A stretch of DNA of 63,059 bases from Rhizaria sp. SCN 62-66 (GCA_001724265.1 MEDY01000291.1:1-63059); one strand, 5' to 3'; numbered from the stretch's first letter, positions 14,801-59,731 are shown. Made by a program: numbers and translations. The notes: generated by a model from the sequence alone, not told the origin.

Positions 14801-14904
14801 AGCCCAGTGCCAAGGTCAGTGGGATTGATACCACGACCACGGACTTGAGCGAGCTTGAGGCCATGCTGGGGCTGGTGCCGTCGTCGCCGCGCGACTTGCC
14901 TTGA
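11845..14904 (+). CDS. PTEN/tensin-type phosphatase plus C2 domain protein with acidic/Ala-rich tail, ~945 aa
   Basis: Exons 11845-12075 and 12298-14904 (intron GTCCGT..CAG). Motifs YITKRLIIM, YMLWNLSERQYD, VLHCQTGTGRS (CX5R), PSQVR, CRPYIQI, GDVLIRV and FPKTFTLDL. Stop is TGA. Confidence 0.88.
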
Positions 14905-26451: not shown

Positions 26452-28689
26452 ATGACGGACAAGTACCCCAACTACAAGCCCCTCCTGAACGTTCAGGCGA
26501 ACGTTCCCTCTGACATCGACATCGCCCACTCCGTGCAGCCCCTGCTGATCAAGGACATCGCGGCCAAGCTGGGCCTTGCGTACGAGGACCTCGACCCCTA
26601 TGGCCACTACATGGCAAAGGTTAACATCGACCGCACGTGGAACAAGATCAAGGAGAACGCGAGCGGCAACTACGTCGTCGTGACGGGCATCACCCCAACC
26701 CCTCTCGGCGAGGGCAAGTCCACCTCGCTCGTCGGCCTCTCCCAGGCCATCGGCCACGTCCTCGGCAAGAACGTCATGACCTGTATTCGCCAGCCCTCGC
26801 AGGGCCCCACGTTCGGCATTAAGGGCGGTGCCGCTGGTGGCGGTTACGCGCAGTGCGTGCCCATGGAGAGCTTCAACACGCACTTGACTGGCGATATCCA
26901 TGCCATCACGGCCGCCAACAACCTCGTCGCGGCCCAGCTCGACACGCGCATCCTCCACGAGGGCCAGCAGGCCGACGCTGCGTTGTTCAACCGCCTTGTT
27001 GCCGTCAAGGGCAACAAGCAGGCCTTCTCTGACATCCAGCGCCGCCGCCTCGCCAAGCTCGGCATCACCAAGACCGAACCTGCCGACCTGACCGACGAGG
27101 AGAAGCGCCGTTTCGCGCGCCTCGACATCGACCCCGCGACTATCACCTGGCGCCGCGTCGTTGACACCAACGACCGCTTCCTGCGCACCATCACGGTTGG
27201 CCAGGGCGCGGCCGAGGCCAAGTACGCGCGCGAGACGGGCTTCGACATCACCGTCGCGAGCGAGATCATGGCCGTGCTCGCGCTCGCCAACGACCTTAAG
27301 GACCTCCGCGAGCGCCTCGGCCGCATGGTCGTCGCCTTCTCCCGCGCGGGCGAGCCCGTGACGGCGGAGGACCTCGGCGTTGCGGGCGCGTGCGCGGTGC
27401 TTATGAAGGACGCCATCCACCCGACGCTGATGCAGACGCTGGAGCAGACCCCCGTGTTCGTGCACGCGGGCCCCTTCGCCAACATCGCGCACGGCAACTC
27501 GTCCATTATTGCCGACAAGCTCGCGCTCAAGCTCGTCGGCGAGGACGGCTACGTCCTCACTGAGGCCGGCTTCGGCTCGGACATCGGCATGGAGAAGTTC
27601 ATGAACATCAAGTGCCGTCAGTCGGGCCTCAAGCCCAACGCCGTCGTCCTCGTCTGCACGGCCCGCGCGCTTAAGATGCACGGTGGCGGCCCCGCCGTCG
27701 TCGCCGGCGCCCCGCTCCCCGCCGCCTACAGCACCGAGCAGGTACGTCACAAAACTCTTTCCTGTATTACACTCGTAACAACTCACTTGTGTGATCCAAA
27801 GTGTTTTTTTAGATCGCATATCAATGAACGTGAACAATTAATCCGTGTTTCTTACTTGATAATCAAATCACATCTCATATTGACAATATTTGTTGTTTTA
27901 CCCCGCTTAGCTCGAGCTCGTAGCTGAGGGCGCCGCCAACCTGCAGCACCACATCCGCACCTCCGCCGCCTACGGCCTCCCCGTCGTCGTGTGCATCAAC
28001 CGCATCACCGGCGACACCGACGCCGAGCTCAAGATTATTGAGCAGAAGTCCCTCGAAGCCGGCGCCTTCGGTGCTGTCGTCTGCAACTCCTGGGCTGAGG
28101 GTGGTATCGTACGTTACTTGTTTATATGTCTTCGCCAAATGTGAATCAAACCTAAATATGTTTTGATAACTGCAAAATTACTCCTAAAGACATGTCCTAA
28201 GCTTAATAATTTTCTCTTGTTTCATGTGTATTTCTTTGTCATCAATAGGGCGCTGCTCCTCTGGCCGAGAAGGTCCTCGAGGCCTGCGCCTCGGTCCGCG
28301 CCCTCCCCGAGAACCCCTTCAAGTTCCTGTACCCGCTCGACCTCTCGATTGAGGAGAAGATCACCGCGATTGCGAAGAAGACCTACGGCGCTGCCGAGGT
28401 GACCTTCTCGGACGCCGCCAAGGAGCAGATCGAGCGCTACACCAAGAATGGCTTCGACAAGCTGCCGATCTGCATGGCCAAGACTCACCTCTCGCTGTCA
28501 ACGGACCCCGAGAAGAAGAACGTGCCCACGGGCTTCACCATCCACGTCCGCGAGGTCCGCGCCTCGCTGGGCGCCGGGTTCATTTTCCCGCTGCTCGGCC
28601 CCATGCCCACGATCCCAGGCCTGCCGACGCGCCCCGTCATCTACGACATCGACATCGACGAGAATGGCAACGTTGTCGGCCTCATGTAA
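26452..28689 (+). CDS. FTHFS: Formate--tetrahydrofolate ligase (monofunctional FTHFS), ~642 aa
   Basis: Exons 26452-27741, 27911-28108 and 28249-28689. Motifs [52 protein letters not shown] and [11 protein letters not shown]. Stop is TAA. Confidence 0.97.
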
Positions 28690-38617: not shown

Positions 38618-38875
38618 ATGGGCAACGTTATTGGTCGCAGCGACCGCGTGCGGCAGACCAAGGTCTTCCTGGAGCTGATTGCGATCGTGTACATCATCCG
38701 CAAGTGGCGCACCGCGGACCCCGACACGTGGGTCGGCAAGCTCGACGCCGCGCTCTTCGGCTGGAGGCCCTGGCAGGTACGCGACACGCCGCGAAGCAAG
38801 CCTCCATCTTGTACATGTATTTCTTGCTTCTTCATCTATATCCGATGTTCAAGCTCTATTATCACTAAAAACACA

Positions 38876-38942
<67 letters not shown>

Positions 38943-41663
38943 TTTTGCATTGTTCTAACTCTTGTTCGTTTGCTCCTCGCTCACAGATCGTGCTCGCGTC
39001 CCTGGGTGTGTCTCACCTGATGAACAACATTTCCGTGGTGCTGGGCCTCAACGCGCCGCACCGCTCCCTCCGCTCCGGCCCCGAACTGCGGTACTCGCCG
39101 TCCTTTTCGCGCGTGCGCTGGCTGTTCACGGCGCTCGACGCGGGCGTGTTGTCGGCCGCGCGCATCCGTTGGCCGCTGCTGCGCGACACCGTGTCTATCG
39201 CGCTGGGCGCCTACTACATGCTCTTCTCCAGCAAGGCCGAGACCAAGGTGCAGCAGTTCCAGTCGCAGATCACGCCCGCTCTCGTCAAGCGCATGTGGGA
39301 GAAGGGCGCACACCCGCTGTTGCGCGCTGTGACGGCGCTGCAGACGCCGCGGATCGGCATCCCGGGCAAGGAGCTCACGCTGCCGCGCGCCGACGGGACG
39401 GGCATCCGCTGCGTGCTCTATTACCACGGCACCGAGGCCGAGCTCGCAAAGGAAGACAAGTACGTGTCGCTGAACAATTACGTTCACACAATGCTCGATA
39501 TCTCGGACGTATTAAGCTGTTTCAACAATATGCTTTATTTTATTATTGAATATTAAAACAACAACGTATTCGAGTTGAACTAATGATCTCATGCGTTTAT
39601 CTTTCCTGCTTATATCCTTTTTGCTTTAGGTTGACGCTCAACTTTCCCGGCGGCGGCTTCATCGCGATGCCGCCCCAGTTCCACACGGACTACCTCACGC
39701 TTATTGCGCTGCGCACCAGGACGCCCATCCTGTCGGTGGACTACCGCAAGGCGATCCACCACCCCTACCCGGCGCAGCTGCTGGACTGTTTCGACGTCTA
39801 CAAGGCCATCACCGACACGGCCGGCGCGGCCGTAGGCGTCAACCTCGTCCAATCCGAGACCTCGCCTACGTCCGCGCCAGCGCCCGCGAGTGCGACTGCG
39901 CCAGCGCCCGCGACAGCGAAGCCGCTGAAGCTGGTGGTGTTCGGCGACTCGGCGGGCGGCAACCTGTCATGCGCGGTGGTGCTCCGCGCCGTGATCCTGG
40001 GCATGCCGCTGCCGTGCGGCCTGCATTTGATCTACCCCATCCTTGACATGACGTCGCGGTTCTGGAAGCCCCAGACGCACATCAAGCTCCAGCCAAGCAA
40101 TACCAATAACAAGAACAACAACAACAACACCGCTAGCAGTAGCAGTAAGACTGACAGTGGTAACGGCAGCACTTACGTGGTGATCCCCCCCGCGCCTCCC
40201 GGCTCCGCTAGTGACACCTTTGCCACTGCCCTCGCCGCGAACGGCGCTAGTAGCGACCCGATCACGACGCTGCGGCCGCCCGAGATGACCTCGCGCGCGC
40301 GCTTCAGCGGCGACGCCGTGCTGCCGTTCCGCTACCTCCTCGTCATCGGGCAGTCGCTCTTCCGCGGCGGCGGCGACCCCACGGGCGACATGTACTGCTC
40401 GCCGCTGCTTGCGCCCGACGCGCTGCTCGCGCGCTTCCCGCCCACCTTTATGCACGTGGGCGGCGTCGACCCACTGTGCGACGACGCCGTCAACCTCGGC
40501 GAGCGGCTCAAGCGCGCCAACCCGGCCATCCCGGTCAAGGTCGACGTCATTCCGGGCGTGTCGCACGCGTACATGAACGTGGCGTCGCTCTTGCCAGAGG
40601 TGCGTGACTTGGTCTCTTGCTTGAAGCAAGACTCGTAATATTGTGTTGTCAAACTTGTAGAGGATATATCTTACATGGATCACATTACATTTAGCAGCTA
40701 TTTTATTATCTAACACAATTCGACTTACACACGTATATTCGTCGTTTTGTAATCTTTCACACTCATATTCATGCTATATTCATATCTTCTATCTTTTGCT
40801 ATCATTTCATGCCATAGGGCCAGTACGCTCTGGGCCGTACTGTCGAGTGGATCCAAGAGTTCCAGAACCTCGCCACCACCCGCACCAGTGAGTACTCCGC
40901 TCTCACAGGCAATGGCGATGCCGCTGGCGTCTCTGCAGGCGGGATCCTTCCGCTGCTCACCACCAGCTCCGCCGCGAACGCCATCAGCAGCGGCGCAAAC
41001 GCTCTCACCCACGGCCTCGGCCACAACGGCAGCGGCAGCGGCAGCGGCGCACTGCCGAGCGCTTACCTCGGCGCGCCCCCTGCTGCGACAACTGCGGCGG
41101 CGTCTGCGGGCTCGGCGGGCGCGCGGCTGACGGCGCTGCGGCAGCTGCAGCGGGAGAACGTGAGTGCGCTGACTCAGTGGCCGGGCATGGACGACTGGCA
41201 AGCGTATCAGCACCACTTGAAGACGCAGAACTACGTCAACGCACAGCAACAGCAGCAGCAGCACAGCCCGAGCGACGCGAGGCTGGTGACCGCGGTGCGC
41301 AGCGGGGTGAGCCATGGGAATTACAGCAGCGGTAGCAGTGGCAACCACAGTGTTGGCGTGAGCGGCTGCAGTGGCAGTGTGAGCGGCTGCAGTGCCAGTG
41401 TGAACGGCTGCAGTGGCAGTGGCTGTGATGGGAGGGCTACAACTCACAGTGCGAGTGCGGCTGTCACGGCGGCTGCCGCGGCGGTGGCTGCGACGGAGCG
41501 ACAGACCACTGCGGCGGCGGTGCTGGCCGCGAAGGCCGAGATTGAGGCCGAGACCAACGCTGGGGCTGATGCGGAGAATGTGATCGAGACCTCAGATACA
41601 GCGACGGCGATCGAGACTACTGACGAGGTCACTGGCTCGCTCATCACTGCCGCGAAGCTCTAA
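38618..41663 (+). CDS. Hormone-sensitive-lipase-like alpha/beta hydrolase, ~815 aa, C-terminal AKL
   Basis: Exons 38618-38776, 38987-39459, 39630-40599 and 40818-41663. Motifs FPGGGF (oxyanion hole), SVDYRK, GDSAGGN, YCSPL, DPLCDD and SHAYM. Stop is TAA. Confidence 0.88.
38871..38943 (+). repeat. Compound (TC)n(CA)n microsatellite in lipase intron 1
   Basis: About 22 TC units followed by about 10 CA units, seen directly. Confidence 0.95.
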
Positions 41664-42253
41664 GCCACGTCTATAGCTGTTACAACAAGTACATATTTGG
41701 GCCTTTGTTAGTTTGGAGGATTGTTGGTGTTTTTAGCGCACTGCTATGAAGCAGGTGCGCATCGTTACCTATTATTTTAAAGTATATATTTCGAGTTTTA
41801 AGTTGGTGCCCGCGAGTTTTCGCGAATATATTTAACTGCCAGAAATTACACAGTTGCTGTAGTCGTCTGATTTATACACATACATGTTGCTTTACCACCG
41901 ATTTTTGCATCATTTGCGCATTTCACAGGGCTTTTTGTTACCGTTGAGATTGACAAGTCTTTCGACGTCGAGTGAGGTTCAACTTCATCCAAACAGAGTT
42001 CAATGCAGTATCCGTTAATTGTAGTGTGCGAGATAAATCCAATATTAATTAAGCACAATTCGCATGATATTCTTAATTCATTCTCATTGTACTTGATTGT
42101 TCCCTCCCATTCCCACTTTTCATTTCTACCGCCCCAACTTGGCTACCCAGCACGCTCCTGGCGCGCTCCCCCTTCAGTACCTCATTACAACAAGACTTCA
42201 AGCGCACAGAGAAGCACACACAGAGAGCCCCGCGGGCTTATTTTGAACCACAC

Positions 42254-42666
42254 ATGGCGAACCCTCTGACGGGTCTCGTGTGGACCGTGCTGCGGTGGCT
42301 GGCGCTGTGGCTGGGCATCCCGCTCGTCCTCATCGCCATCATCGGCTACTTCGTTCGCCTTAAGGGACTCACGGTCATGCGCTCGCTCCAACACGAAATT
42401 ATCAAGTCATCCCACGATGCCCCGCGGTTTGCCTTGCTTGCGGACCTAAACGCAGAGCTCAACCTCGACTCGGACGACCCCTCCATGTCCACAACGGGCT
42501 CTGCCTCATCTGCTGGTGGCGCCAACGGTTCCCACGGCCCACCAGTCTCGTTCTTCGCGTCATTGCGCGCGTTCATTGTCTCTGTGCTGTCGATGCTTGC
42601 GTTTCCCTGTCTTAGATACCGCCAGCGGCGCCAGCTCGCAGCGTCCGCGGCCGCCACGGCCGTCGC

Positions 42667-42701
<35 letters not shown>

Positions 42702-42856
42702 CCGCTGCTGCCGCCGCCGCCGCCGCCGCAGCCGCCGCCAGCCCCGCCGCGCTGGCGCACCGCATCGACGCCGTGGATCTGTCCGGCGCGCACTTGCTGT
42801 CGCGCCCGCAGTCGCTGTTCCTGCTGTCGGCGCTCACCGCCACGGCGCCCTCCGCT

Positions 42857-42897
<41 letters not shown>

Positions 42898-45800
42898 TGG
42901 AGCACCTGCAAGTGCGACTGCTCCCGGCGCCACTGCCGGCGCCGCTGCTGCGGCTGCTGCTGCTGCTGCGGGCAAGACCGCTGCGACCAGGGGGTCCAGG
43001 GAAACAACGACCGCTGTGAACGCCCTCACGGCGATGTACGCTCGCGACCCCACCGCCAACGCCAGCAACAGCCACGCCCTCGTGGTGGTGGGGCGCGGTT
43101 TGCGCGCAAATCAAGCTAAGGCCACGGGCGTCGCGAGCTACAGCCAGCCCAGAGACGCGGCCGCGGCGTGCGACGACCTCGACGACTTAACTTCCGCGGA
43201 GCTGCTGACGTCAGCGCTCGCCTGGGCCGCGGCCGCCGCCACCACGACGTCGACCGACATCTCAGCGGCCGATGCGGCGGCGACCGGCGCGGCGGCGGCC
43301 CCGGGCGCGGCCCAGGGCGTAGACGGCGTTGACGCCACTGATGCGTCAGTTGCTGCAGGCGCAGCTACGTCTAGTAAGCCTGTGCGGTCACTGCAGTCGA
43401 TGTTTGCGTTTTCCTACTTGTGCCAACAGCAACAACAGCAGCAGCAGTAGTCGCAGGCGCAGCCCGTGTCGCTGCCGTCGATGCCTCTGCTGTCGACGGC
43501 GGCCGCGGTTGCGGCTGCAACGACGGCCAACGCCACCGCGGCAGTGGCCGCCGCCACGGCCACCGCGGCCGCTGCTGCCTCTGCCGCCGCCTCGAGCTCT
43601 AGTTCTGCTGGCGCATTGAACTCTGCCAGTAAGATCAACATGGGAAGCTCAACCACTGGCTCTGGCGCGTCGAGCACAAGCTCCGCATCGATTGGCTTTG
43701 GTTCCGCTGCAGTCTCTAGCTCCTGCTCGGTGCAGTTCCTCGTTGCAGCCTCGACCGCAGCAGCAGCCACCGCTGCAGCCGCCGCTTCCGCTGCAGCCCC
43801 CGCTCAACCTACCGCTGCCGTCGCCCCTGTCGCGGTCGCCGCCGCCGCCGCTGCGACCGCCGCGTCCGCCGCCGCCGTCATTTCAGCCGCCTCCAGCGCC
43901 GCCGCCACCGCGAGCTCGAACACCAGTCTCAGTCTAAGTATCCCCGGCGCGGGTGTAAGTGCCCTGGACGAGTCGCGCGCGTTTGCGCTGGCGTGGGCCG
44001 GCGTGCCCGCGCGGCAGCGGCGGCGCTTGCTGCACCTGGCGGCGTGCGAACTTGCGCGGCGCTCCCGCCGCAGGGCCGCCTGCGCCGCCGTCGCCGCGCT
44101 CGTCGCGGCCGCGTCCCCACAGACAGCGGCGGCGGCAGGGTCTGCCAGCAGCACCGGGGGCCGCGCGGGCAAGCCCGGCGCCGCTGTTGCTGGGACTGCT
44201 GTTGCGCTCCCCAATGCCACGCACACCGCAGGCGGTGTAAACGCCGTGAACGCACACGGGCACGCGCACGGCGCGCACGGCGCGCACGGACACGCGGGCG
44301 CTGGTGCAACTGCAGCGACGACGGCCGCCGCGGCCGCGGCCGCCGCTGCGAACGTCGCGGCCGCGGCCGCTGCCGCTGCCGCTGCGGCTGCGGCGCGCGC
44401 CGTGCCCACGAGCTCGGGGCTCGGAGTGCTGCAGTCGCTCGCCACCGTGAGCCTGAGCGATTGCGAGTCGATGGACGAGTGTTCTGACAGCGACGACGAC
44501 GACGGGGCGCGCGCGGGCTCGGACGACGCTTTGGACAACAGTCGCAACTGGGGGAGCGAGGTGATGAGCGCGAGCAGGTCGACCAGCAGCTACGGCACCG
44601 CTATGCCGGGTTTCGGCCCGCGCCAGCGGAGTGTTCCGACCGCGAGCAGCGGCGCAGCAAGCGCAGGGCAGCCGCAGCACGGAGGCGGGGTGAACCGCGT
44701 GCGCAGCTCAGACCTCGCGTGGGCGCTCACTCTCGCGGCGCGCTTGCACTCTCAGGCGAACGCAAGCTCGAGTAGCACGAGTTCGCCGGCGCAGCCGTTT
44801 GGAGACAGCGAACAGCAGAGGCTGCGGCGCGCTCGCCGTGCGCGCAACGCGGTCACTAACAATAACATCAATTCGACTCCTTACACCGAGAATGGTGCCG
44901 TTGAGAATCAGCGCAACAGCAGTGACGCGCTCTCAGCGCGCGCAGCCACCGCGGCCGCACTTCTGTCCCTGTCTGCGTCTCTGCCCGAGGAGACGTTTGC
45001 AGCACTTGCAGCGGCGCTCGCTACAAGCTCTGCGCAACCGTTTAGTCTCAGCCCAAATGCTGATGACGGCGACAGCTATTCGACGGAATTGAGCTACTCG
45101 ACCGCCAGCGCGAGCAATGACGCCGCGGATACCTGTGTTGCTGGTGCTGGAGCTGTTGGCGCCAATGGTAGTATTGTCTCGCACTGGAGTCTGCTTCACC
45201 GGCTCGCCTATGCGAACTCGTACGCACTTTATACCGGCAACACCAACGCCACCGACATGATGACCAACAGCATTGACAGTAGCCTCGGCGTGAACTCCGG
45301 ATTTGTCAGTTCTATCCCCACAGTGACACATACGATGCCGCAGTTCCCACTCCCTGTTCCTGTCACTGCTGCTACTGTTGGTGCGGGCAACCCTGCTGCT
45401 AAGGACCGATACACCGCGGCCATCTCCGCCGCCCGCGCCCTTGCGCTTGGTTCTCTGGGCGCAACTACCGCCGGCGCTGTGCTGTCCGCTGTGGATCCGC
45501 ACAACACCGCTGGGACAAGCGCCACCGAGCAAGGCATTGTGAGCATGACCGGCGCGGGCTCAGCGGTCTCCGGCGCGTTCCCCTCCCTGCTGTCGTTGGT
45601 TGATCTCTGCTGCAACGCGCCTCCCGCTGCTGCGCTGAACGCCGACTCAGCAGACGCGAGCGCAAGTGCCTCTGGAACTCACGGCGGCGCGTCCCCGATG
45701 CAGGCCGCGTTGCTGGCGCTGATCATCGCCGAGGCGCAGAGCACGGGCGCGATCAGCAGCATCGAACGCAGTCTGTTGATTCGCAGGCTCAAGCTCCTCG

Positions 45801-48277
45801 CGACTTCCGCTGCGACGAACGCCAGCACGAGCTCGACGATCGCGACTAACGCGAGGAGCAGCGCTGGCTCCATGGGCGCTGACGTTGCGTACACGCAGGT
45901 TCATCTGCACTCACAGTTGCCGCTGCAGTCGCAGTTGCCGTTGGGCTCAGGTGTTCTGTCCAGTAACACCACCGTCAGCAGCGACAGCCTTCACCACGGT
46001 GTGAATACGAGCGCTGCATACGCGAACACTGCTCACAGTCTCCCCGCCTCTGCTGCTTTGGCTGCTTCACAAGATTCGAAGCCGTTCTACGACATTATCT
46101 TGTCCTTGATCGACACACAAGATGCTGTTTCTGCTGCGCAGGGCCGTGCCCGCGGCATGACTTTCCTGCAGGAGCGGCTTAACTTTCACCAGCGCGCATA
46201 CGAGGCCGACATGGCGCGCGCACGCCGCGAAGGCCGCCGCGCCCGCACCCGCGGGGGTCGCAAGGGCGCGAACGCGAGCTCCGCCGCGAGTCCGAGTCGC
46301 CCCAACCGCAGTCGCGCGGCCAGCAGTTCTGCTGTCGGTGCGGGTACTTACACCAATGGTGCGGGTACTTATACCGGTGTAAGCGGCCGGGTTGACACGC
46401 GTGGCCTCGGCGCCGTTGACGCGTTCGCGCTGGTGTTGGCCGACGTGGGCGTCGCGCCCCCGCGGCCGCCACTGCTGCCGCCGCCATCTGCAGGCGTTTC
46501 CCAGCCGCGCTCGACCTTCGCAGTGTCCGGGCCCAACGCCGATTACGGCAGTGGTGGTTCTGCCTGTGCTGGTGGCGATGCTTCGTTGGCACGGCCGTTC
46601 GTGTATCCGCACTCGGATTCCGACTTCCAGTCACAGTCCAAGTCGAGCCCGCAGTCGCTTGCGGTCACGTGTCCCTGCTGCGCGCACATCTTCCCTGTTG
46701 CGCCCGCCTCTGCCGCTGCGGTTTCCTCTCTTGCTGGCGCCAACGCCCGCGTGATTGCGAGGACCAACAGTCGCCGCCAGCGCCGCGGTCGCAGTTTGTT
46801 CAGGGGGTTTGCGCTTAAGACCAGCCCGATCTCTTCACTGAACAGTGCCACCTCGTCTCACGGCAACACACCGAACTTCAAGAGTGTCTACCGCGCTCTG
46901 GCAGTAAAGAGTAACAATAAGACTGTGTCAACTGCTCTGCGCGCTCTGCTGATGGGGGCCACTGTGGGATGCCCTGTCCCGCTGTGGAAGCGCTCTCTCA
47001 GCGGCCTAGCTTCTGACCTCAGCGGCGTAGCGCACAGTCGCTGTCGCGAGTGCGGGTGCGCTGGGGGCACGAGCGGTGGCGCGGCTGCGAGCGCGAGCGC
47101 CCTTGCGAGCGCAAGTTCACGCACAGTTGCCCGCGCGACTCCAAACAAGCCCCCCGCAGTGACCGCTGCCGACTGCGTCGGCAACACAAGCGCGGCTGCG
47201 GCCGACGCACGCGATCTTGTTCGCGTCGATAACGGGCTGAGCTTGCGCGAGCTGAGCGCGAAGTACCTGCGCACGCTGCCCGTCTCCGCGGTCCCACAGG
47301 AGAGCGCGTACACGCACGAGCTGGCGCAGTGGTACCGGCGCTCGCTGGCTAACGTGACCCGGCTCGTGCGTGTCATGCTCACGCGCAAAGAGAGGCTGGC
47401 GAAGCGCCAACCGCCGCCGCAGCAGGTCGAGGAGGACGGCACCCGCGAGGGCAGTGGCAAGATGAATACCAGCATCAAGCGGCGCGCTTTGACAGCAACA
47501 GCCCTGTCGCCCTCACATTCTCGGCGGAAGAGTAATGCGACGCAAAGCGCTGGCAGCACTGCGCCCGCCAGCCCTGTGAGTGCTGCGGCTGGCGCCACGG
47601 TGAACAAGAACAAGAAGGGCCTGAAGGCGCGGAGCAACAGCCACATGAGCAGCAGTGATGACGTGAACTCCGACACCGGCGGCTTCATTGCCAGCTTGAA
47701 TGGCAACTTGAACGGCAACCTAAACGGCAACACAGACGCGGGCGTCGCACTGGCGCACACGCGCAGCTACAGCACCCACAGCCACAGCCAGAGCCACATT
47801 CCGAGTCCGAGTCCGAGCGAGAGCGTCAGCCGCAGCCTCCGCCACGGCCACAGCCACGGCCTGAGCCGCCCCAGCAGCAGTAGTCGCAGCCTCACCGCGA
47901 CCCACAGCCGCAGCCCCAGCCAGACGCATCTCTACCCAGTCACTGGCGCTGGCGCTGGCACTGGCGCTGGCGCTGGCACTGCTGGTGCGAGGAAGGGGCT
48001 TGGCAGCGACAGCGAGGAGAGCTATGAGATCAAGAGCTCGAGCCGCAGGGGCCGTGGGAGCGGCAGTCGCACCAGTAAGGACTATGATGGCGCCGACTCC
48101 GACGCGGACGATAATGACGACAACGATGACTATGATGATGAGGAGGAGTACGACGACGCTGGCGATCACAGCGATGGCCGTGGCTCTGACGAAGATGATT
48201 CTGCGCTGGACGAGGATGAGGACGAGGACGAAGAGGGCGAGGCTGAGATGCTTGCCAGGAGTCTCTATTATCCTTAA
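42254..48277 (+). CDS. Large Ala/Ser-rich protein of unknown function with N-terminal TM helix; 2007 aa if the in-frame TAG at 43448 is decoded
   Basis: ORFs 42254-43450 and 43466-48277 share a frame and are separated only by a TAG ending a poly-Gln run. There is no AT-rich intergenic or intron-like gap. Hydrophobic N-terminus (LVWTVLRWLALWLGIPLVLIAIIGYFV) and acidic C-terminus. Stop is TAA. Confidence 0.7.
42663..42897 (+). repeat. Two (GCC)n poly-Ala tracts
   Basis: GCC-rich runs at ~42663-42739 and ~42859-42897. Confidence 0.9.
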
Positions 48278-48813
48278 ACACGCTGTGCACAGCGCAAATT
48301 TCGTGTGACTGCGAACTTGTCAATGTGAACACTGCTGATTGATCTCTCATTAAACAAGATTAACACGATTGTCGACAGGCAAGACGTGTATATTTAGCTA
48401 TATAGACACAGACTACAACTGATCTCAATGAATACACAGCTTATCTGATTCTCTCTATCCCGACATAGACTGTATTGAGTAAAGCCTTAACAATAAGTAT
48501 GGGAATCCCAAAGTCACACAATAATTCAGTATGTCTTGTCAATATCAAACAAAATAGCGCATAAACAGCACAAGACCATTCATAAACTCACTAGTCAACT
48601 AGAAATAATGACAACCACAACAACACCAAAAGCAACACCACAAAACAGCACCTAAATCAACCAGTTCAAGCAGACCCACAGCCGAGACAAGGCTCACGCA
48701 GTCCGCACGCAGTCCGCACGGAGCTGCAAGTCTATCAGCCTATGCGATTAGTGCTTATTCTAGCTTGCGCATACGAGTATCTCGATCAGGATACCTACAT
48801 ATTGGCGAGGTAC

Positions 48814-49674
48814 TTACGCGGACTTGAGGCCCACGGTCTCCCAGGGCGCGGCGCCGGTGCGGGGCGCGGGCACCATCGCAACGGCGCCGCCGTTGCTGCC
48901 AGCGGCGGCGTTGGCGGCGGCCCAGCGGCGCGAGCGGCAGCCGAAGAGGAACATGTGCGCGAGCCATCCGGCGACGAAGCCGCCGACGGCGATGAGGATG
49001 CTGATGTTCTTGCGGAGGCGCCACACCTCGTCGGCGTCCTTCTTGAGCGCCGTGAACATCTCCGTGAAGGCCCAGACGGACTCGGCCTGCGCAAAGGCCG
49101 GCAGCGGGCGCGTGGGCGCCAGCGCAAAGGCCGAGGAGCGCAGCGCGGCGGCGTCGCGCGCGCCCTCGTGCGCTGCGAAGAGCCCCGTCGCCGAGTAGCC
49201 GGTCGCCTCGCTCGCTACGCCAGACGGCGGGAGGAAAGTCAGGCCGCCCGAGGGGGAGTCCGCTGCGGCGCCCGCGGCGGGGTAGAGGTGCGAGCCGGTG
49301 CCGGGGGCCTGGAGCATCATGAGCGTGGGGTAGCCCTTGACGCCCATGAGCTTGCACGTGACGGCGTTAGTGGTGCAGTCCAGGGAAGCGAGCGTGGGCG
49401 GGACAGGCGTGCTGCCGCCTGCAGGCACCGCCGGGAGCGGGTTCGCGTGCAGGTCAATGGCAAGACGCTCCCAGGTCGGCGCCAGGGACTTGCAATGACC
49501 GCACCAGGGCGCGTAGAACTTGACGAAGAGGCGGCCGTGGGTGGCCAGCTCGGCCGCGATGTTGTAGTCGGTCAGCGTCAGGGAGCCGGTGCGCGGGCCG
49601 GGGGGCGTAAAGTCGGCCGCGGCAGCCAGCGCGAGAGCGGACAGGACGGCCAGGAGGACGCGGGAAGCGAGCAT
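48814..49674 (-). CDS. Single-domain thioredoxin/PDI-family membrane protein (TMX-like), 286 aa
   Basis: Signal peptide, FVKFYAPWCGHCKSLAPTW, GVKGYPTL and a C-terminal TM segment (ISILIAVGGFVAGWLAHMFLF). Stop is TAA. Confidence 0.88.
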   Translation of the reverse strand: MLASRVLLAVLSALALAAAADFTPPGPRTGSLTLTDYNIAAELATHGRLFVKFYAPWCGHCKSLAPTWERLAIDLHANPLPAVPAGGSTPVPPTLASLDCTTNAVTCKLMGVKGYPTLMMLQAPGTGSHLYPAAGAAADSPSGGLTFLPPSGVASEATGYSATGLFAAHEGARDAAALRSSAFALAPTRPLPAFAQAESVWAFTEMFTALKKDADEVWRLRKNISILIAVGGFVAGWLAHMFLFGCRSRRWAAANAAAGSNGGAVAMVPAPRTGAAPWETVGLKSA

Positions 49675-50202
49675 CGAGGCTGAAACAGAAAGAGCGTGGG
49701 CGAGGCAGAGGCGGCGTGGGAGGAGATTTGTGGATGGTGGTGGGCGTAGGCGAAAATTGGATATCAGAGATAAGAACCTAACGCAGCAGATTTTAATTGA
49801 ATAGAAGTGCCTATTATACTAGTTCGGGATTTAAGGACTTTTCATGTGTCTGTCAACGGTCACTACGTTGCAAACAAGATTGTTCAAATCATAGTCCAGT
49901 ACTGCCTCCAGCCTTTGCGGACCTTCAGCTAATCCACATTTCAAGCAGTACACATATAAGGACACATGCTATGAAAATGATGTTATCAATATATCGTTTT
50001 GCGTGCATGATTTATTGCTGTCCTTGTGATTTCATACTATCTAATGAGATATACCCCGGTCTGTGGCGAATCTCCGATCTGACCACGTGCTTCTCACATC
50101 GCCCATCACTGCTCTTGTTATGCGCTCCCTTGTTGTATAGTCTTCCTCTCTCCTTCCAGCCATCTATCTTACACCCCAAAGTGCGCCCTTACGGAAGCCA
50201 TT

Positions 50203-53200
50203 ATGCTTAGCGCTCGACACGCCGTCCGCGCGTCGCTGCGCGCGTGCGTGCGCCCCCTATCAACCAGTAGCGCCGCTGCAGCCACTTCTGGTGCGACTGC
50301 GTCCGCGGCTGCGTCCGCGGCTGCCACTGATGCTGCGAGCTTAAACAAGTGTCGCCCTGTCCGTGTCATTGTTCTTGGTGGCGGCGTTAGTGGCTTAACT
50401 TTCGCCCACTCGTTTGTGCGCGCCGCAGTCCAGGAGAGCCCTTCACTTACTCAGAATGCTCCGAAGGCTGCTGCTGCGCGTGCGGGTGCGACCGCGTCAG
50501 GCTCCGACTCGAGCTCCGAGGCGTTGTCGCCGGCCATGGCGGCGCTGGCGGCCGAGGTGGGCGCGGGCCGCGACATCCACATCACCGTCGTCGAAGCAAG
50601 TGACAAGTACGTCGTAACTTGAAAATGTGTTACTGACCTTGCAATCACACAAGCACCACGATTCGGTCACAGTATCGAGGCAGCACACGTTGAACAAGAG
50701 ATTTCACCAATTAATATTTGGATATTTCAGCTAATTGATCTTTCTGGTGTTGTCTTTTTGTTTATTTTGTTTCTTTCTCCTCTAAGACTCGGCGGCTGGA
50801 TCCAGTCCGACACGCACTCGCTGCCCGCCAACCCTTCTCTTCCCCGCGCAAGCACCGCCACCTCCGTCTCCGCCGGCACAGGCTCCAGCACCTCCGCGTC
50901 CTCGTCCGCGCTTACGGTTACCACAGAGCGCGGTCCGCGCGCGTTGTCGACCCACGGCGGCCCCTCCGGCTCGCGCGGCGACGCGGCGCAGGCGCTGGCG
51001 CTGCTGCTCGAGCTGGGGCTGGAGCGGCACGTGCTCGAGGCCGACGACGCCGCCAAGCACCGGTTCATCTACGCCACCGACGAGGGCGCGCTGCGGGAAG
51101 TTACTCCGCTGGGCGTGGTGGCTAAGTACGGCTGGGGCGCGGTGGGCGAGCCCTTCCGCCCGCCGCTGAAGCGCATCGTCGACCTCACGACCGACAGCAG
51201 CGAGAAAAGCGATATCCTTAGCAACAACAGCAACATCGACGGCAGCAGGGGCAGGAGCATGGCGCTGACGGAGCACGGGTACGCGGACGAGACCATCTGC
51301 GAGTTCATCACGCGCCGCTTCAGCCGCCGCATCGCGCTCGAGCTGGCGGACCCGGGCGTCGCGGGCGTCCATGCGGGCCGCATCGACCGGCTCTCGCTGC
51401 GCGCAGCCATGCCCAAGCTCTACTTCCTCGAACGGCTCAACGGCAGCGTGGCGTTCCCGCTGCCGCTGCTGCGCCAGACCCCCGACGACGAGTCCACCGA
51501 GGCGCTGTACCGGCTCCCACTCCGCAGCCGCTCCGGTTGGCTGGGGGCCGCGGCGGCGGAGGCGGCGCAGGGCCACCCGCTCGCCTTCTCGCTGCCGGCG
51601 CCGCCACTCGCGGGCGCGCCGCCGACGCCAGCGCCCAGCTTCAGCGCCACGCGTCATCACTCTTCTGAGAACAAGGACGGCGCTGACGAGTATGACGATG
51701 ACGGCGACGACGAGATCGATGACTACGACCTTGAGGCCGAGATAGATTACGCTTTCCGCGTCCAGGTCCGCACGCCGCCGTACTTTTTTGGAACCCGCGG
51801 CGCGTCGCGCGCGCCCCTCAGCGCCGCGCCGCTGCCCGGCTCGGTCGCGGCAGTGCCCTTCTTCGCCCCCTTCGAGATCCCCCCGACCACGGCGGTTGCG
51901 CTGGTCGCGACGGCTGACGCGGACAGCAAGACGGGAAATGACGATGAGATGAGCACCGCGCTCGCCGCGATTGCTGCCGCAAACGCCGCTGGTAATGCGG
52001 CGGCCAGGGGGGGCAAGCCCCGGTCCGGCGGCGCGGGCGGTGCGACAATAAACAAGGCCGGCGGCGCCGCGAGTGCACCCGCGCAGACCGGCCCTGCCCC
52101 ACTGGCGCCGGTCGGGGACATCGACTGGTATGAGGGCGCGTCTCCCGTGCTGATGCAGCGCCTCCGGCACCCGAGTGATCTCGCCAAGCTGCGGTACGTT
52201 GCACACTGTCTTAACATAATATTTCTCACAATATACCTTCCCAGGATCTATCATATTTCAAATTAAACTTTCTTACAACATCAATGATTTTATTCACGCA
52301 TTATATTCATTATATCTATAAATCTCTCCGTTTTAATTGTTTTTTTTCGCCCTGTAATCGCAGAAAGTGGCGCAAGTCGGGCCTCGTGTCGCTGACGCCC
52401 GGCATGCACGCGATCCCTCAGTCGCTCGCCGCGGCCCTCTGCGCCCCCACCGCGGGCTCGCTGCCGCGGCCGGCGCACGCGTCCCCGGTCCCCGCGCCGC
52501 GCACGCGGCTGGCGGCGTCGTTCGCGCGCACCGCGCCCGCGGTCGACCCGCTCTGGCGCCTGCTAGCCGCCGCGACGCACGGCCACGCGAACAACACCAC
52601 GAGGAGCACCGCCGCGCACAGTCAAACTGACGCCACTGCTCCTGCCTCTGCGGCCCCCGCGCGGTCCATCCTGCCCCCGTCCATGCACCGCCCCGCGTCC
52701 TCCGCGTCCTCTGCGTCCTTCACCGCTGCGACAGCTGTGGTCGCGGCGGCGCGGGCCGGGTCCGTCACGGTCGACGTGTGCACGGACACCACCGCGCTCG
52801 CCATGACGCTGCGCGGGGCTGAGGACAACAGCAACAGCAACAGCAACAACAACGGCGACATCGGCGGTACAAGCAGCGCGAAGGAGGGGATCACGGTGAC
52901 ACTTGCGCCGAGCGAGAAGTTAGGCCGCCCCGCGAGTGGCGCGGCTGCGAGTCTCGTCGTTGACAGCGTCGACGTTGAGTGCGACTACGTCGTGTCCACG
53001 CTGCCCGCGCATGCGCTGGCGAAGCTCCTTTCTGCTTCCGCCACCGCGACCGCGACCGCCACTGCAAGCTCGGACACGACCGCGACTACGAGTGCCACGA
53101 CTGCGATGTCGTCTGCGGCCGCAGCGTTTGCCTCGGTCCGCCACACCACCGTGTGGGTCGTCACCGCCCTCTTCACACCGCAACAGCTCGAGGCCGCGCT

Positions 53201-54620
53201 CGCGCTCGCGTCGGCGAGCAGCGTCGCCCCCAGGAGCGCGAACCTGAGTCTGAGCAGCGGCAGCGGCGTCAAGAGCCTCTACCACAGCGTCAGCAAGACC
53301 ACTGAGACGCCCGTCAGTGGGGACGCTGTTGCACTGCCACAGACATCTGCTGCCAACAGCGTGCAGCCCTCGTCTTCGGCGGCCCCACCCCTGTTCCTGT
53401 CCCGCTGCTCGCAGGCCGACGTGGCGATGGTTGCCGCGTTCGGCGCCGCGCTGCGGGCCCGCCTCCCGGGCTTCGGCGCGCTGCTGCCCACCGCGGCCGT
53501 GCCTGCAGTCAGCAGCAGCAGCAGCAGCAACAAGGCCGTTGACAACAGGGACAACGCCGAACTTGACAGCGAGGGCCGGAGCCCGAGCCACCCGTTCTAC
53601 GGGCTGCTGGGCGCCGTGTTCGATAGCGACACGTTTCCCAGCATGACCAAGGGCGCGCTCGTTGTCACCATGATGGTCGGCGGCGACCGCTTCCCCGAGA
53701 TGGGCAACGTCAGCAGCATCAGTAGCGCCGCTTCGAGCTCAGGGCCTCATGTGTGGACCGAGGAGCGCGTCAGGGCCAAGGCGGCGGGTTACTTGCACGC
53801 CCTGTTCGGCTTCCCCGTCCCTGTTGACGCTGAGCCACAGCAAACCCACACTGGCGTCCCTGATAGCACTGCGAATGTGGCGCATCAGGTGCTGGCTCCG
53901 ACGATTTTTTCGGTCCGCCCCGCGCAGCAGTGCATTCCGCAGCCGGCCCCCGGCCACACGCGCGCGATGCAGGGCGCCACCTCCGCGCTCGCCTCGGCCT
54001 TCGGCTACCGCGACCTCTCCTGCATGAGCCGCGCTTACACGGGCAGCGACAACGCCCCCGCAGCATTCTCAGCAGCAGCGGCGGCGGAGTGGAGCCACGG
54101 GCACTGGGGCGCGGGCCCGGTCCCGGCGCTCTCGTCGCAGCTGCCGCCGTCTGCGCCACTGTCTCTCAACCACGTCTTCATTCCCACTTTCGACAGCACC
54201 GCTGCCAGCTCGTCGAGCGTGGATGCTGTTGACGTCGACGCTGACGCTGACTCTGACGCTGGCTCGCGCGGTCTCGTCGTGCCCCAGGGCGCCCCGCTGG
54301 CGCCGATGGCGGGCAACTTGCTGACGTCAGCAGGCCTCGTGCACCCGCGGCTCGCTGTGCTGGGCACCGCGGTAACTGGCCCCGCGGTCAAGGACCTGAT
54401 CAAGGAGGCGCGCTTCGCGGCTGTTCGGCTGGCGCGGCACATCAGGGCCGGGGAGTACGTCGCCGAGCTCGCGCTGAACAAGAGTGTCGACGGCAAAAAT
54501 GGAGGGACAAGCTCTGACTCTCGAGTCAAGAGCAGCGGGCTGGTGACTGGGACTGCGGCGGCTGCAGCCGCACCGACCGTGGTTACGACACGCAAGGGTA
54601 GGAACTCTGTTCTTGGCTAA
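50203..54620 (+). CDS. PPOX: Protoporphyrinogen oxidase (HemY/PPOX type), ~1355 aa with long inserts
   Basis: Exons 50203-50606, 50787-52193 and 52364-54620. Motifs VIVLGGGVSGL, EASDKLGGWIQS, ERGPR, DETICEFITRRF, GVHAG..LSLR, GFGALLP, LLGAVFDS..FP and CIPQ. Mitochondrial-type presequence. Stop is TAA. Confidence 0.88.
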
Positions 54621-54814
54621 GTCATTGTGAGGACACAAGTAATGTGTTCATTTTTTGACAAAATCAGATAACTGGTTCAATCAAATCATATTTATTTATT
54701 TGACTGTATTCGTTTCAATGGGTGGAAAATATCAATACATCATATTCGTGGCACATGCGTAGTTAATTGAAGCTTGACAATCAATGATTAACTTCTGCCG
54801 TCCTCATTTCGACA

Positions 54815-57800
54815 TCATTGCTTCTCAACCGACTCCACCGCCGCCCTGACCGCGACGAGCTCGTCCGCGTGCGCCATGCCGCTGCGCAGCGCGCGCAGCA
54901 GAGTCACCAGACAGGTCTTGTTGGCCATATCGCGGCAGACGCGGTGCACGAGGTTGAGCTGGCCAATGACGCCCTTCGTGGCCCCAGTCCCGCTCTCGCT
55001 CTGCGCAGCTTCAGTGTCGTCCGGAGCCTCTGCGAGAGCAAGTGTGTACCCGTCAAACTGCTCGACGGGCCCGCTGATCGCGCGCAGCACTTGCTTCTCC
55101 ACCGCAGCCACACTGCGCACGGCGTCATTGCACCTCATCCGCGATGCAAGCGGCTTGTCGCTGTTGTCGCCGCCGCTGTTGCTGTTAGCGTTGCTCCCGC
55201 TGCTGTCGTTGCCCTTGCTCCCAGGCTAGGAGACCCAGCGCCAAAGCCCGAGGCGCAGCAGCGGCGCCAGCAGCAGCGCGAGCAGCGGCGACGGCCGGCT
55301 GGGCCGACCGGGACCGCTGGCGCACGCAATGGTGGAGATGCAGGGACTGTGCGGCGGGTGCAGCGTGAAGTTCAGCCGCACGAGGTGCTTCGCGCGCAGA
55401 CGAAGTGCTTCAGACAGAGGGACAACAGCCCCGTCATCGGTGGTAATGGAATCATCACTCGTGCTCTTCTTACACTCATCCTCACCGCCATCGCCGTTGC
55501 TAACGCGCTCAGTGTGGCGCTTCACTAGCTCCACGACCGCCATCGCCTTGTCCGCCGTCATATTTTTCTCCCGCCGCAAGTACGCCTCAAAGCCGCACGC
55601 GTCAGCCAGCGCGGCCACGGTCTGCGCCGCCTGCTCCGCGCGCGCCGTCAGCATGAGCGCGGCCGACTCGGCCACGGCCGTCAGCAGCGGGTTTTCTGCG
55701 TAGCCCATGCCCGTCTTGGTGTGCGCGTAGAAGTCGCGCACCGACTGCAGCGCGTCGATCTCCTCGTCGCTCAGGCCGCGCAAACTCTGCAGCGCGGCGG
55801 CGTTGGGCGGGACGCAGGTGTTAGGCGTGCCTGAGAACTTGTGCGTGGCCTGAATGCGGGCGTACTCGACGACGGCGGCCGCGGAGAGGCCCGCAAGCCG
55901 CTTCCGCAGCGTGAGCGAGCGCGGGTTCAGCAGCGCTGTCGCGCCCAGCGCCAGCATAAGCCGGCACAGCGCCGGGTCGGGCCCGCTGGCCGAGAGCAGC
56001 AGCAGCGCCTGGCGGACCGCGGGCCACTCGCGCGGGTGTCTGCGCTCAAGTGCGGCCGCCAGCGCGCTGTCGCTCCTACTACTGGGAGCGTGAGCGTTAT
56101 AGCTACAGACAGGGCCGTCAGGCTCGTCGTTGCTCTCCGCGAGTGCTTGCAGGAGGCCGCGCACGCACGCCGCCGTGGCACCGGGCGCCCAGGCGCCGCG
56201 CGGGCCGCGCAGCGCGCCGGCCGTGGCCACCAGCACCACGTCGAGCAGCGTCGGCGGGGCGTCCGGCGACGAGCCCTGCTTCGCCACGAACGGAGCGTTG
56301 TTGCGCGTGGCGGCAAGCGCCGCGGTCACAATGCGGCTGCGCGCGCGCAAAACGGCACTGGAGCTCTCCGCCTCACGCTGCCGGTTGATAGAGCGTTCGC
56401 GCGCAGACTCGAGGCGCTGCTGCGCAACGCTGACGTGTGCCGCGAGCGCGAGGTCGAGCGCGGGCGAGACGGGCAGCGAGAACACACCCTCGTTGTCGTC
56501 GCAGTCGCTGTCATCGTTAAACTCAGCGTTGTTGCACTCAACGGACTCTTTGTCGAGGCCTCGGTACTCGCTCAGGTCAATGGCATGGGAAATTTCTTTC
56601 TTGGACTCCTCCTTGGGAGTGTTGCGCACGAGATACTCAAAAATCACCTTCGACGTATGCGGCAAACGCGCATTCACAGCAGGAAAGAGATAGTTCGTGA
56701 CGCGACGACGCTGATCCACGCTCAAACCCACGTTGCCCGTCGCGGGGCCGTGGCCCAGGTCGTCGAGCACGCGCATCAGCAGCCCCGCCAACGCAATGTC
56801 GTTTGCGTTACCCGCCGCGCTGCAGTGCGGAAAGCACGGGAACTGCGCGCTCGGCACGGCGTGACACTGCGGGCAGGGCGGCTTGACTTCCTTCGCGCCG
56901 ACGGCGGGCGGGAGACTTAGCGCGAGGTTGCGGCGGCGGACGCGCGCGCCGTGCACCGCCGGGGCGGGGCGCGGGGGCAGCGCGGGCAGCGCAGCAGCGC
57001 GCACACTGGCGACGGGGTCGTTGTCGTCGTTCGCGGCGGCCGAGTTGCCGGAAAGCGACGATGACTCGCCCGCCGTGTGGTTGTCTTGGCTCCGAGCGCG
57101 CACCGGCCAGAGCGAAAAGGCCGTGGTGATCGCGTCGTGGTCATTCCACGAGTACGTGTCCTCCCGGGTGTACGCGCTGCCCCTCTCCGCTGCCGCAGCC
57201 GCCGCAGCGTCGTCCCCGCCGTCGCCGTCGCCGTCGTCGTCGAGGTCTAAAGCGCCGCCGCCGCCTGCACCGCCCAGCACGGGCTGCGGGCCGTAGCAGC
57301 TCTTGCTCGCCCATTCGAGCAGCAGCCCCACGCACGTGAGCGCGGGGTCCATGCGCAGCGCGAAGGCGTCGGGCTGCAGCAGCGCGTGCAGCTCCCAGTG
57401 CGCGAGCGAGCCCGCCGAGTAGGACACGTGGAGCCGTGCCTGATCGTGGCACTGCCCCGCTAGGAGCGGCAGCGCGCCGACGCTGCGTGGACGCGGGGAG
57501 AGCTTCTTCAGGGGCACCGAGTCCGCACTCGCCTTACTGTCGGTCGCATCATAACTAGAGATGGAGTTGGAGACGGCACTCGGCGCAGTGTTGCTGGGCC
57601 TAACGGTGAGCGTCGGCGGCGCCCCCCCCGGAGTGACAACAGCGTCAAACCCCACGTACATGCTGGGAGCGTACCGCACACTGACCCCGTGCTGATATCG
57701 CGAGCTCCCGCTCCCGGCCGCGCTTGCACTCGCTTGCGCACGCGCAGCGCTACCCGGGCCGCCGGACTGCGCGCCGTGCTAGCCCGCCTCCGCCAGCTCG

Positions 57801-59731
57801 CTGAGATTAACCCGCCCGGTCAGCACGTCGTCAAACAGGACGTCGCGGTCGTCCTCGTCGGCGGCCGCGAACAGCAGGTCGCGCACCACGGCGCGCGTGT
57901 CCCCGTCCAGCGCGCGCATCTGGTCCAGCGACGGCAGCTCCAGCCGCTCAAGCAGCAAGTTCACGCTCGCGTACGCGTCGCGACAACGCTGGGAGCCGAA
58001 GTAAGTGTAGTAGCCATTGAGCGCGGGCGGCGCCGCCAACAGCCGCCGAGCCTCCCGGTCCCCCGCGTGCCGTTCCCAGTCGAACCCCGTGCCCGCGCCC
58101 GCCTCGTCATTATGGCGCTGCGGTGGGTGCACGAGCCGCGCGGCGCCCTGCCACGCGGCGCGCCTGCCGTCCCAGGCGACGGCGACGGCGAGCAGCGCGC
58201 GCTCGCCGAACGCCAGCGCGGTCTGCCGGCACCCCACAGCAGGCTCCGCGGCCGCGTACGGGTACGAGCTGCGGTTGTACGGGTCCAGCGGGTCGCCATG
58301 GCCGTAGCGCCCCACCGCGGGCCGCGCGAGACTGGACGCGGAGGAGGCGCCGGGCGCGGGGCGCGTGACGGGCGCGGTGGGCGGCCCCGTGCCGCAGTCG
58401 GCCGCCAGCGCGGGCGGGAGGTGCGCCAGGATCATGCTCTCGTAGCACGAGACCACGGCGTCGCGCGCGACCGAGGGCTCTGACGCGCGGTGGCCGGCTG
58501 CGACCTCGGCAAACAGCCGCGACAGCGCAGCCGCGGCGGGAGACGGCGCCGCGGAGGCCGCGGCGGACGCGTTGGGCAGTTGGGGGTCGGCGCTGTCGTG
58601 GACGCGGCGTAGTTCAGTCGCGTCAGGTTGGGGGGCGTTTTGGTTTCCAGCGCTAGTGCCCGCGTTGCCGTTGCCGTTGTTGCTGTTGCTGTTGCTGTTG
58701 TTGTTGCTGTTGAAGTTGCTGGCGGCCTTGCGCGCGGCGTCGTCGTGGTGCATCTTGAGGAGGTCGGCGACGGCGTCGGCCGCCATGAGCGAGCACAGGT
58801 AGGGAAAGCAGGCGCCGCCCGTGCCGCCGGCGGCGTTGGCAAGGATGAGCAGGCGCGCCACGTGCGGCGGCTGCTGGTAGTGGGCGAAAAGCAGCGCAGG
58901 CACCTCGGCGTCGTCCACGCTCGCCGCGACGAGCTCCTCGCCAGAGAGGGCGTGTGCGCTCACCGCGACGTCTCCGCCGCTGCCACTGCTGCTGCTGCTA
59001 ATGCTGCTGCCAGCAAGGCCGGCGGGGGCAGGGAGGAGCGCGAGCACGTGTTTGAGCAGCGCGGGGTCGCCGTTGGTGACGACGCACTTGACGAGCTGCT
59101 TGACGTGCACGGGCAGCGAGTGTGCCGTACCGCTGCGCACGCCCGCCGCCGCCGCCGGGTCCGCGGCAAGAAAGCGTACGACGGGGGCGTGGAACTCGGT
59201 CGCCGCGACGAAGAGCGGCGACGCAGGGTAGCTGGAGACCTTGTTGGGGCAGAGGTTGAGCGCGGCCCAGAGCTGCGGCGAGAGCGCCTGCTTCAGCATG
59301 CGCACGGCGGCCAGGTTGCCCAGCTGCGCGGCGCACGAGACCGGCAAGCGGTGCAGCGTCGTAACGGCGTCACCGCAGCGGGCGAGGATGAACCTGAGCG
59401 CGTTGTAGTAGTGGCGGCCGATGCAGAGCGAGAGGATGTCTGAGATCTCGGTGCTCTCGACGGTGCTTGTCACCAGCACCAGGCACGCGGCGAACCCGGC
59501 GGCCTCCGACGGACTCAGTGTGGCCCGACCATAAGTGCCGGTCGCCACCGGCTGCTGCTGTGCGTCACCGCCGTCGCCGCTGTCGGTCTGCGGGACGTTG
59601 AACGGGACGTTGAGGAAGGCGGCGTGGACAGCGCGCAGTCCCGCGAGCATGGCGTCGTCGGAGCTGACGTCCAGCGTGGCGCGGAAGTTGCGCGCGCCGC
59701 GCACAAAGATAACGTCCTCGTTCAGACTCAT
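54815..59731 (-). CDS. Large protein with degenerate N-terminal ankyrin-like repeats; 1638 aa if the in-frame TAGs at 57779 and 55226 are decoded
   Basis: ORFs 59731-57779, 57679-55226 and 55138-54815 all share one frame. Each junction is a single TAG with GC-rich open coding sequence on both sides. Ankyrin-like segments PVSCAAQLGNLAAVRML and SPLFVAATEFHAPVVRFL. Final stop is TGA, followed by AT-rich sequence. Confidence 0.7.

Follow-up and report, generated by a model that had tools for sequence, protein, structure and literature searches.

Evidence from a wastewater-associated eukaryotic contig that UAG may be a rare sense codon, possibly for glutamine, alongside UAA and UGA stops

Among nuclear genetic codes that have departed from the standard table, UAA and UAG are nearly always reassigned together, and uncoupled codes in which UAG alone has changed are few (PMC5304391, PMC11687900). 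Such TAG-only nuclear codes occur in at least five lineages, namely Iotanema, exLh, Scotinosphaera, Protocruzia and several phyllopharyngean ciliates (PMC5304391, PMC11687900). Iotanema spirale (Fornicata) reads UAG as glutamine (Gln) with UAA and UGA as stops, and its tRNA-Gln(CUA) is predicted to derive from tRNA-Gln(CUG); the rhizarian exLh (Sainouroidea) reads UAG as leucine (Leu), with 384 in-frame UAGs in 71 genes, 56 UAA and 15 UGA stops, and UAG rarer in highly expressed genes (PMC5304391). UAG-only changes are also described for ciliates, in phyllopharyngeans (Gln twice, Leu) and Protocruzia (Gln), and for the green alga Scotinosphaera, where UAG is serine (Ser) and UAA a stop (PMC11687900), and the aphelid Amoeboaphelidium protococcarum uses both UAG and UAA for Gln (PMC6299283, PMC11687900). 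A tRNA with a CUA anticodon and an altered eRF1 are predicted for known UAG-sense cases, and the eRF1 site corresponding to human Leu69 is discussed in connection with exLh (PMC5304391). Here we analyse a eukaryotic contig of 63,059 nucleotides (nt) filed under Rhizaria sp. SCN 62-66 (GCA_001724265.1, MEDY01000291.1:1-63059; this whole stretch is called the window), in which two long genes, A and B, are interrupted by three in-frame TAGs; TAG is probably translated as an amino acid in this organism, and one contig alone is no proof of it.

On balance, we favour the reading that UAG is a rare sense codon, most likely for Gln, and that UAA and UGA terminate. A preliminary description of this DNA had proposed such a code, and everything testable in the window fits it, with the residue, given there as likely Gln, depending on one codon context. 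The three isolated TAGs lie where they had been placed, in two long genes (Table 1). The open frame of gene A comprises 457+1608 codons around a TAG that is the only stop inside it, and that of gene B is split by its two TAGs into 696+850+136 codons with no other stop. The same-frame, coding-like continuation after each TAG was borne out by GC content at third codon positions (GC3) of 0.7-0.9 across the sites and by a codon-usage score trained on 15 exon sets other than genes A and B. In the first stretch downstream of the TAGs, the advantage of the same frame was 0.45, 0.78 and 1.05 bits per codon, as compared with 0.87-0.90 in long open reading frames (ORFs), and two spacer controls gave -0.14 and 0.22 with far lower absolute scores. 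Likewise, the TAGs adjoin no AT-rich untranslated region or intron, as had been claimed: GC is 0.65-0.69 over the 250 nt on either side of the TAGs, with local values of 0.62-0.73, and the 250 nt upstream of each TAG are free of GTAHGT donors. AT-rich segments are absent from gene B and limited to a single one of 35 nt in gene A. Past TAG 2, gene B continues for 136 further codons at GC3 ~0.86 and then reaches a TGA adjoining an AT-rich spacer (GC 0.33). GC drops after every modelled gene end, and at each modelled junction between same-strand neighbours an AT-rich spacer of ~150 nt or more intervenes, whereas the TAG sites have no such spacer. Sense-like ORF tails that end in TAG lie within GC-rich sequence in 11 of 11 cases, two of them being the gene B sites, and none lies before AT-rich sequence. 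Each of the two genes is a single unbroken coding exon that passes through its TAGs.

Table 1. Positions of genes A and B, their in-frame TAGs and other features of the window, counted from its first nucleotide.
Feature	Position	Strand	Remarks
Gene A	42254..48277	+	single intron-less exon, 2007 codons then TAA; one in-frame TAG
Gene A in-frame TAG	43448..43450	+	context CAA CAG CAA CAA CAG CAG CAG CAG TAG TCG CAG
Poly-Gln tract prolonged by gene A TAG	43424..43447	+	8 codons; sole clue to the encoded residue
Gene B	54815..59731	-	single exon, 1638 codons, TGA at 54815-54817; orphan, two in-frame TAGs
Gene B TAG 1 (codon 651)	57779..57781	-	context GGC TAG CAC
Gene B TAG 2 (codon 1502)	55226..55228	-	context TCC TAG CCT
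AT-rich spacer, upstream same-strand gene (TAA 41661-63) to gene A	41673..42109		GC 0.38
AT-rich spacer after gene A TAA	48277..48654		GC 0.38
AT-rich spacer between gene B TGA and TAA of convergent neighbour	54618..54810		GC 0.33; example of a genuine gene end
Ribosomal protein uS13 (S18) gene	23523-24161	+	damaged; frame change ~24084
Intron starts, GTACGT	25413, 27742, 28109, 39460, 52194, 16324, among others	+	AT-rich, lengths 127-168 nt

These continuity data, together with independent assemblies, bear on the possibility that the gene models are wrong, such that the TAGs close neighbouring but distinct genes, fall inside small introns or stem from sequence error. Downstream ATGs are available for separate genes 31 nt, 118 nt and ~29 codons past the TAGs, and TAG 2 falls within a pyrimidine-rich, acceptor-like ...CTCCTAG; against this, all three junctions are in frame, which separate adjacent genes would achieve by chance at (1/3)^3 = 0.04, spacers and donors of the kinds described are absent nearby, and the coding signal is unbroken. 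Sequence error as the source of the TAGs is excluded: contigs from other public runs, drawn from at least three studies, show no difference from the window at any of the three sites. Specifically, contigs of runs X2 and X3 are identical to the window over 42978-43852 at the gene A TAG, over 53648-56372 at TAG 2 and over 57004-57873 at TAG 1, where the data sets of X2 and X3 seem to be closely related and contigs drop minor variants. TAG 2 recurs in an identical contig of run X4 (54527-55460; a separate 2025 study), TAG 1 in one of run X5 (57675-58057; a polyA RNA-Seq library from that same 2025 study), and both in the JGI metagenome contig L001, which is identical over 53737-57873. Identical TAGs are carried by independent assemblies of studies P1/P2 and P3, and they are stable across samples about ten years apart. 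The RNA-library contig bridges TAG 1 gaplessly by 104 and 276 nt, and TAG 1 may be present in mature mRNA. None of the RNA-library pieces listed covers the gene A TAG or TAG 2, an absence of cover that carries no evidential weight; contigs of other organisms are drawn to the CAG repeat next to the former. With these data the wrong-model explanation is hardly credible and largely refuted. As a separate observation on gene B, run X4 carries a 9-nt in-frame insertion at 57649, downstream of TAG 1, which is the sole indel in the 18 kb compared.

Stop codon usage points the same way. When gene ends were rebuilt with introns, 14 were TAA, 7 TGA and none TAG (n=21, including two weak models at 33104 and 60392). 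The preliminary description had counted 20 ends (12 TAA and 8 TGA); its finding that TAG is missing stands. The window has introns, and several gene ends taken earlier from simple ORFs are in fact the ends of exons. For five ends, homology extending to the last positions of the family profile or of solved chains provides an anchor, and these are TAA for thiolase, formate-tetrahydrofolate ligase (FTHFS), peroxidase and uS13 and TGA for ribulose-phosphate epimerase. How surprising a TAG-free set is depends on the share of TAG among stops that is assumed: the probability of 0/21 is 0.11, 0.033, 0.009, 0.002 and 0.0006 at shares of 10, 15, 20, 25 and 30%, respectively, a range of 0.0006-0.11 for shares of 0.30-0.10; the figure of about 0.002-0.006 given earlier was for 18 genes at assumed shares of 25-30%. 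In 50 eukaryote genomes, TAG becomes more frequent and TAA less frequent as GC3 rises (PMC9348620), and TAA-rich, TAG-free ends at the GC3 of 0.8-0.9 found here therefore oppose the eukaryote trend. Still, 21 gene ends are too small a sample to exclude rare TAG termination. Within genes, 12,318 confident codons contain 3 TAG, 0 TAA and 0 TGA, with genes A and B accounting for 3,645 of them; the claims that no gene model has an internal TAA or TGA and that TAG is very rare and missing from conserved genes both hold at this scale, as no gene with a Pfam family carries one. Candidates rejected as extra in-frame TAGs were those at 2229-2231 (-) and at 31.3 kb (-), both inside AT-rich introns, and the one at 60507 (+), which is antisense to a small minus-strand ORF.

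A number of observations weigh against a sense UAG, and many of them serve an alternative that we consider unlikely, in which the code is standard, the TAGs are genuine early stops that cut short two genes of low complexity, both dispensable and quickly evolving, as young pseudogenes or as truncated alleles, and the TAG-free ends come from sampling and a strong TAA preference. There are just three TAGs in two orphan genes, and no conserved gene of the window carries one; all three sit in low-complexity linkers of these orphan, fast-evolving genes, a placement that tolerated premature stops would show as well. Because genes A and B are orphans (gene A without a Pfam family, gene B without a homologue in 1.84 billion representatives), no alignment names the TAG residue or shows selection downstream. 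That only TAG interrupts the genes is weak evidence, because in the present codon usage 0.67-0.68 of single-base nonsense changes yield TAG, which is the nonsense codon to be expected, and with a share of ~0.68 three of three would be TAG with a probability of ~0.31. If TAG ended 10% of genes, its absence from 21 ends would be unremarkable (the 0.11 given above). The samples are near-clonal, differing over 18 kb by 3 substitutions and a single 9-nt insertion, and persistence across samples that are nearly one clone says little on long-term maintenance. The RNA library that covers TAG 1 also has an unspliced contig (50530-50830) across a predicted intron, and its contigs may for that reason be pre-mRNA or DNA. 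Searches with Rfam and ARAGORN found no tRNA in the window, and Rfam found nothing else either; eRF1 is likewise absent from the window. Finally, damage to genes or faults of assembly do occur here, as the plainly disrupted uS13 gene nearby shows: chain positions 56-113 are matched by exon 2 and ~128-152 by the last 24 residues, in a different frame, and ~14 highly conserved codons (chain positions 114-127) are absent around 24084. This lesion, which is an indel and not a TAG, reflects either a pseudogene copy or faulty assembly, and by it the assembly or genome contains damaged genes.

What sets genes A and B apart from decaying genes is the kind of lesion they lack. Across their 3,645 codons there are 0 frameshifts, 0 TAA and 0 TGA, and codon usage is undiminished past each TAG. 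Only ~2% of substitutions in the two genes create a stop, and with assumed indel:substitution ratios of 0.05-0.2 nonsense makes up 10-35% of disabling lesions; under this decay model, three of three lesions would be nonsense, without any frameshift, with a probability of 0.001-0.04, and would be nonsense and all TAG with a probability of 0.0003-0.01. The absent frameshifts are a stronger argument than the TAG-only pattern. In addition, premature stops would have to fall twice in one gene and once in another among ~21 genes, the only length variant downstream of TAG 1 keeps the frame, and the TAA-rich, TAG-free ends run contrary to the GC3 trend (PMC9348620). The earlier judgement that decay is unlikely is hence retained for genes A and B, with no frameshift in 11 kb and the codon score kept, and dropped for the window at large, where uS13 is damaged.

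Alternatively, UAG might be leaky or ambiguous and not reassigned, with a near-cognate tRNA-Gln reading through in some contexts to give full-length and truncated products, and UAG might still end genes. The base after TAG is C in two cases and T in one, and a C at +4 is the leakiest eukaryotic stop context; the extreme rarity of in-frame TAG would also suit such a state, and ambiguous codes are in print for Condylostoma, karyorelicts and Blastocrithidia. We regard this as distinctly improbable in view of the 0/21 gene ends with TAG and of extensions of 1608 and 986 (850+136) codons as against the short ones in known programmed readthrough. Nor do the contexts (TAG TCG CAG, TAG CAC GGC and TAG CCT GGG) fit the CAR-YYA type motif.

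Returning to UAG as a rare sense codon, Gln is favoured because one TAG prolongs a run of eight CAA/CAG codons and because Gln is the commonest outcome in print. The gene A TAG directly follows the eight Gln codons, and CAG to TAG is one C-to-T change; the contexts of TAG 1 and TAG 2 hold no residue hints. If the residue is Gln, TAG makes up 3 of 396 Gln codons (0.8%). The code would then be the same table as that of the UAG-only ciliates with Gln; NCBI table 15 assigns TAG to Gln. In mechanistic terms, a tRNA whose anticodon is CUA, in the simplest case tRNA-Gln(CUG) after mutation, would insert the amino acid at UAG, and eRF1 would have lost or weakened its recognition of UAG; UAG would be rarely used in sense and UAA and UGA would end all genes. 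That TAG is rare and lies in linkers alone suggests a codon-capture reassignment that is young or inefficient.

Set beside the described codes, the window shares with Iotanema a UAG that alone is sense, a UAA kept as a stop and Gln as the likely residue, and differs in that Iotanema has UAG in conserved genes, with the residue assigned by likelihood on alignments, whereas here TAG occurs only in orphan genes and in 3 of 12,318 codons (PMC5304391). It resembles exLh in having more UAA than UGA and no UAG stops (14, 7 and 0 for UAA, UGA and UAG here) and departs from it in residue, which is Leu in exLh whereas the lone context clue here is for Gln, and in the far rarer use of TAG (PMC5304391). 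Scotinosphaera has in common with it a UAG-only change outside ciliates (PMC11687900), and is distinguished by its residue and by the ribosomal-protein fragments of the window, which score best against fungal and animal chains, not plant ones. With Amoeboaphelidium the likeness is a stop-to-Gln change in a fungus-related lineage, given the fungal or opisthokont look of the ribosomal proteins and peroxidase here, and the code differs because TAA is the commonest stop in the window (14 of 21). The ciliates are set off by gene structure, since the exons here have a GC3 of 0.8-0.9 and the introns are AT-rich, begin with GTACGT and measure 127-168 nt, a structure that does not look ciliate. An anaerobic fornicate is not what the window derives from, because it encodes a cytochrome-c-peroxidase-type enzyme and proteins with PTS1-like ends; this had been part of the earlier account and was upheld, as the peroxidase matches ascorbate/cytochrome-c peroxidase chains and two proteins end in AKL. 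Taken against the known UAG-only cases, the distinguishing traits are extreme TAG rarity, GC-rich intron-bearing genes and a set of aerobic genes in which protein ends are of peroxisomal type.

These comparisons lead to a tentative further reading, which we regard as quite possible: an aerobic, GC-rich eukaryote of activated sludge, possibly fungus-related, may have captured UAG independently and be at an early stage, with the codon gone from gene ends, almost absent from coding sequence and confined to unconstrained sites. TAG-only nuclear codes are known already, and the present case would join them with an independent origin; if true, it would add a TAG-only origin to those known from ciliates, fornicates, rhizarians and green algae, in a lineage outside them, and would show the codon-capture route under way in nature. 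The rarity of TAG would bear on how reassignment begins, that is, whether loss of the codon as a stop precedes its use in sense or an ambiguous intermediate is passed through. A literature search on the topic met no UAG-only organism from wastewater, which does not show absence from print.

Gene A encodes an Ala/Ser/Gln-rich protein with an N-terminal membrane anchor, and a Pfam search found no family in it. For gene B, which likewise has no family in a Pfam search, the full-length translation with TAG as Gln had no homologue among proteins of 900-2867 amino acids (aa), a 1199-aa piece across both TAGs matched only the window's own three ORFs among the 1.84 billion representatives, and the middle ORF matched only itself among proteins of 467-1488 aa. 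In the public protein collection gene B appears as three proteins of 650, 811 and 101 aa (P0001-P0003), since gene calling ended at every TAG; P0002 agrees with the window at 100% identity. Genes of this kind are broken up at TAG by standard gene callers. In one public assembly, gene B sits on a contig of 114 kb. A scan of viral contigs with P0001 gave no match, and the only match in a metagenome scan was a 4.1-kb contig with the same sequence as the window.

Regarding its source, the window is found in bioreactor, wastewater and activated-sludge metagenomes, with at least half of its words occurring in 4 of the 13 listed runs and 5-10% of them in runs X6-X11; the studies that have it date from 2015-2017 and 2025. 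Its exons are GC-rich (GC3 ~0.8-0.9) and its spacers and introns AT-rich (GC 0.28-0.45). The thiolase and FTHFS genes are each cut by AT-rich stretches of ~140-165 nt, after which the Pfam domains pick up again and reach the profile ends. All five intron starts that were read directly are GTACGT, with 3' ends of the YAG type, and a GTACGT next to an AT-rich segment was taken to mark a sixth start, at 16324 (+); the almost invariant GTACGT start is a possible lineage marker. Over the whole window the GTACGT hexamer occurs 22 times on the + strand and 12 times on the - strand, and GTAAGT or GTATGT only 6-8 times.

Lineage signals from the conserved genes are mixed. The peroxidase scores highest against ascorbate/cytochrome-c peroxidase chains and the Atlas clusters it matches are fungal, and a scan of genome contigs with it gave no match. 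For two short ribosomal-protein fragments, the PDB ranking favours fungal and animal chains, not plant ones; the best chains are fungal, and one top entry is linked to C. elegans. The Atlas clusters matched by FTHFS are bacterial. The FTHFS gene (26452-28689, +) is monofunctional: its match begins at profile position 2, and a dehydrogenase/cyclohydrolase domain is lacking upstream; as the enzyme is usually trifunctional in fungi and animals, this fits oddly with the fungal look of the peroxidase and ribosomal proteins.

Other genes of the window offer minor observations. A PTS1-like AKL precedes TAA in thiolase (stop at 25954-25956, +) and in a 281-aa protein (stop at 41661-41663, +). The identification of a PPOX gene in the preliminary description was not sustained, as none of the 3 exons has a Pfam family at E <= 0.01; the putative gene (50083-54620, +) has a dinucleotide-binding-type N-terminus (VIVLGGGVSGL) and two introns. 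An alpha/beta-hydrolase gene has, in an AT-rich part of its first exon or intron region, a CT/CA dinucleotide microsatellite (~38800-38970, +) that reads SLSLSL...HTHTHT. A PTEN-like protein (gene at 12232-14904) has relatives at 54%, 41% and 39% identity (P0005, P0008 and P0009), the closest of which, at 54%, would offer a natural genome to compare for the code and occurs in public metagenomes, its contig reaching 314 kb.

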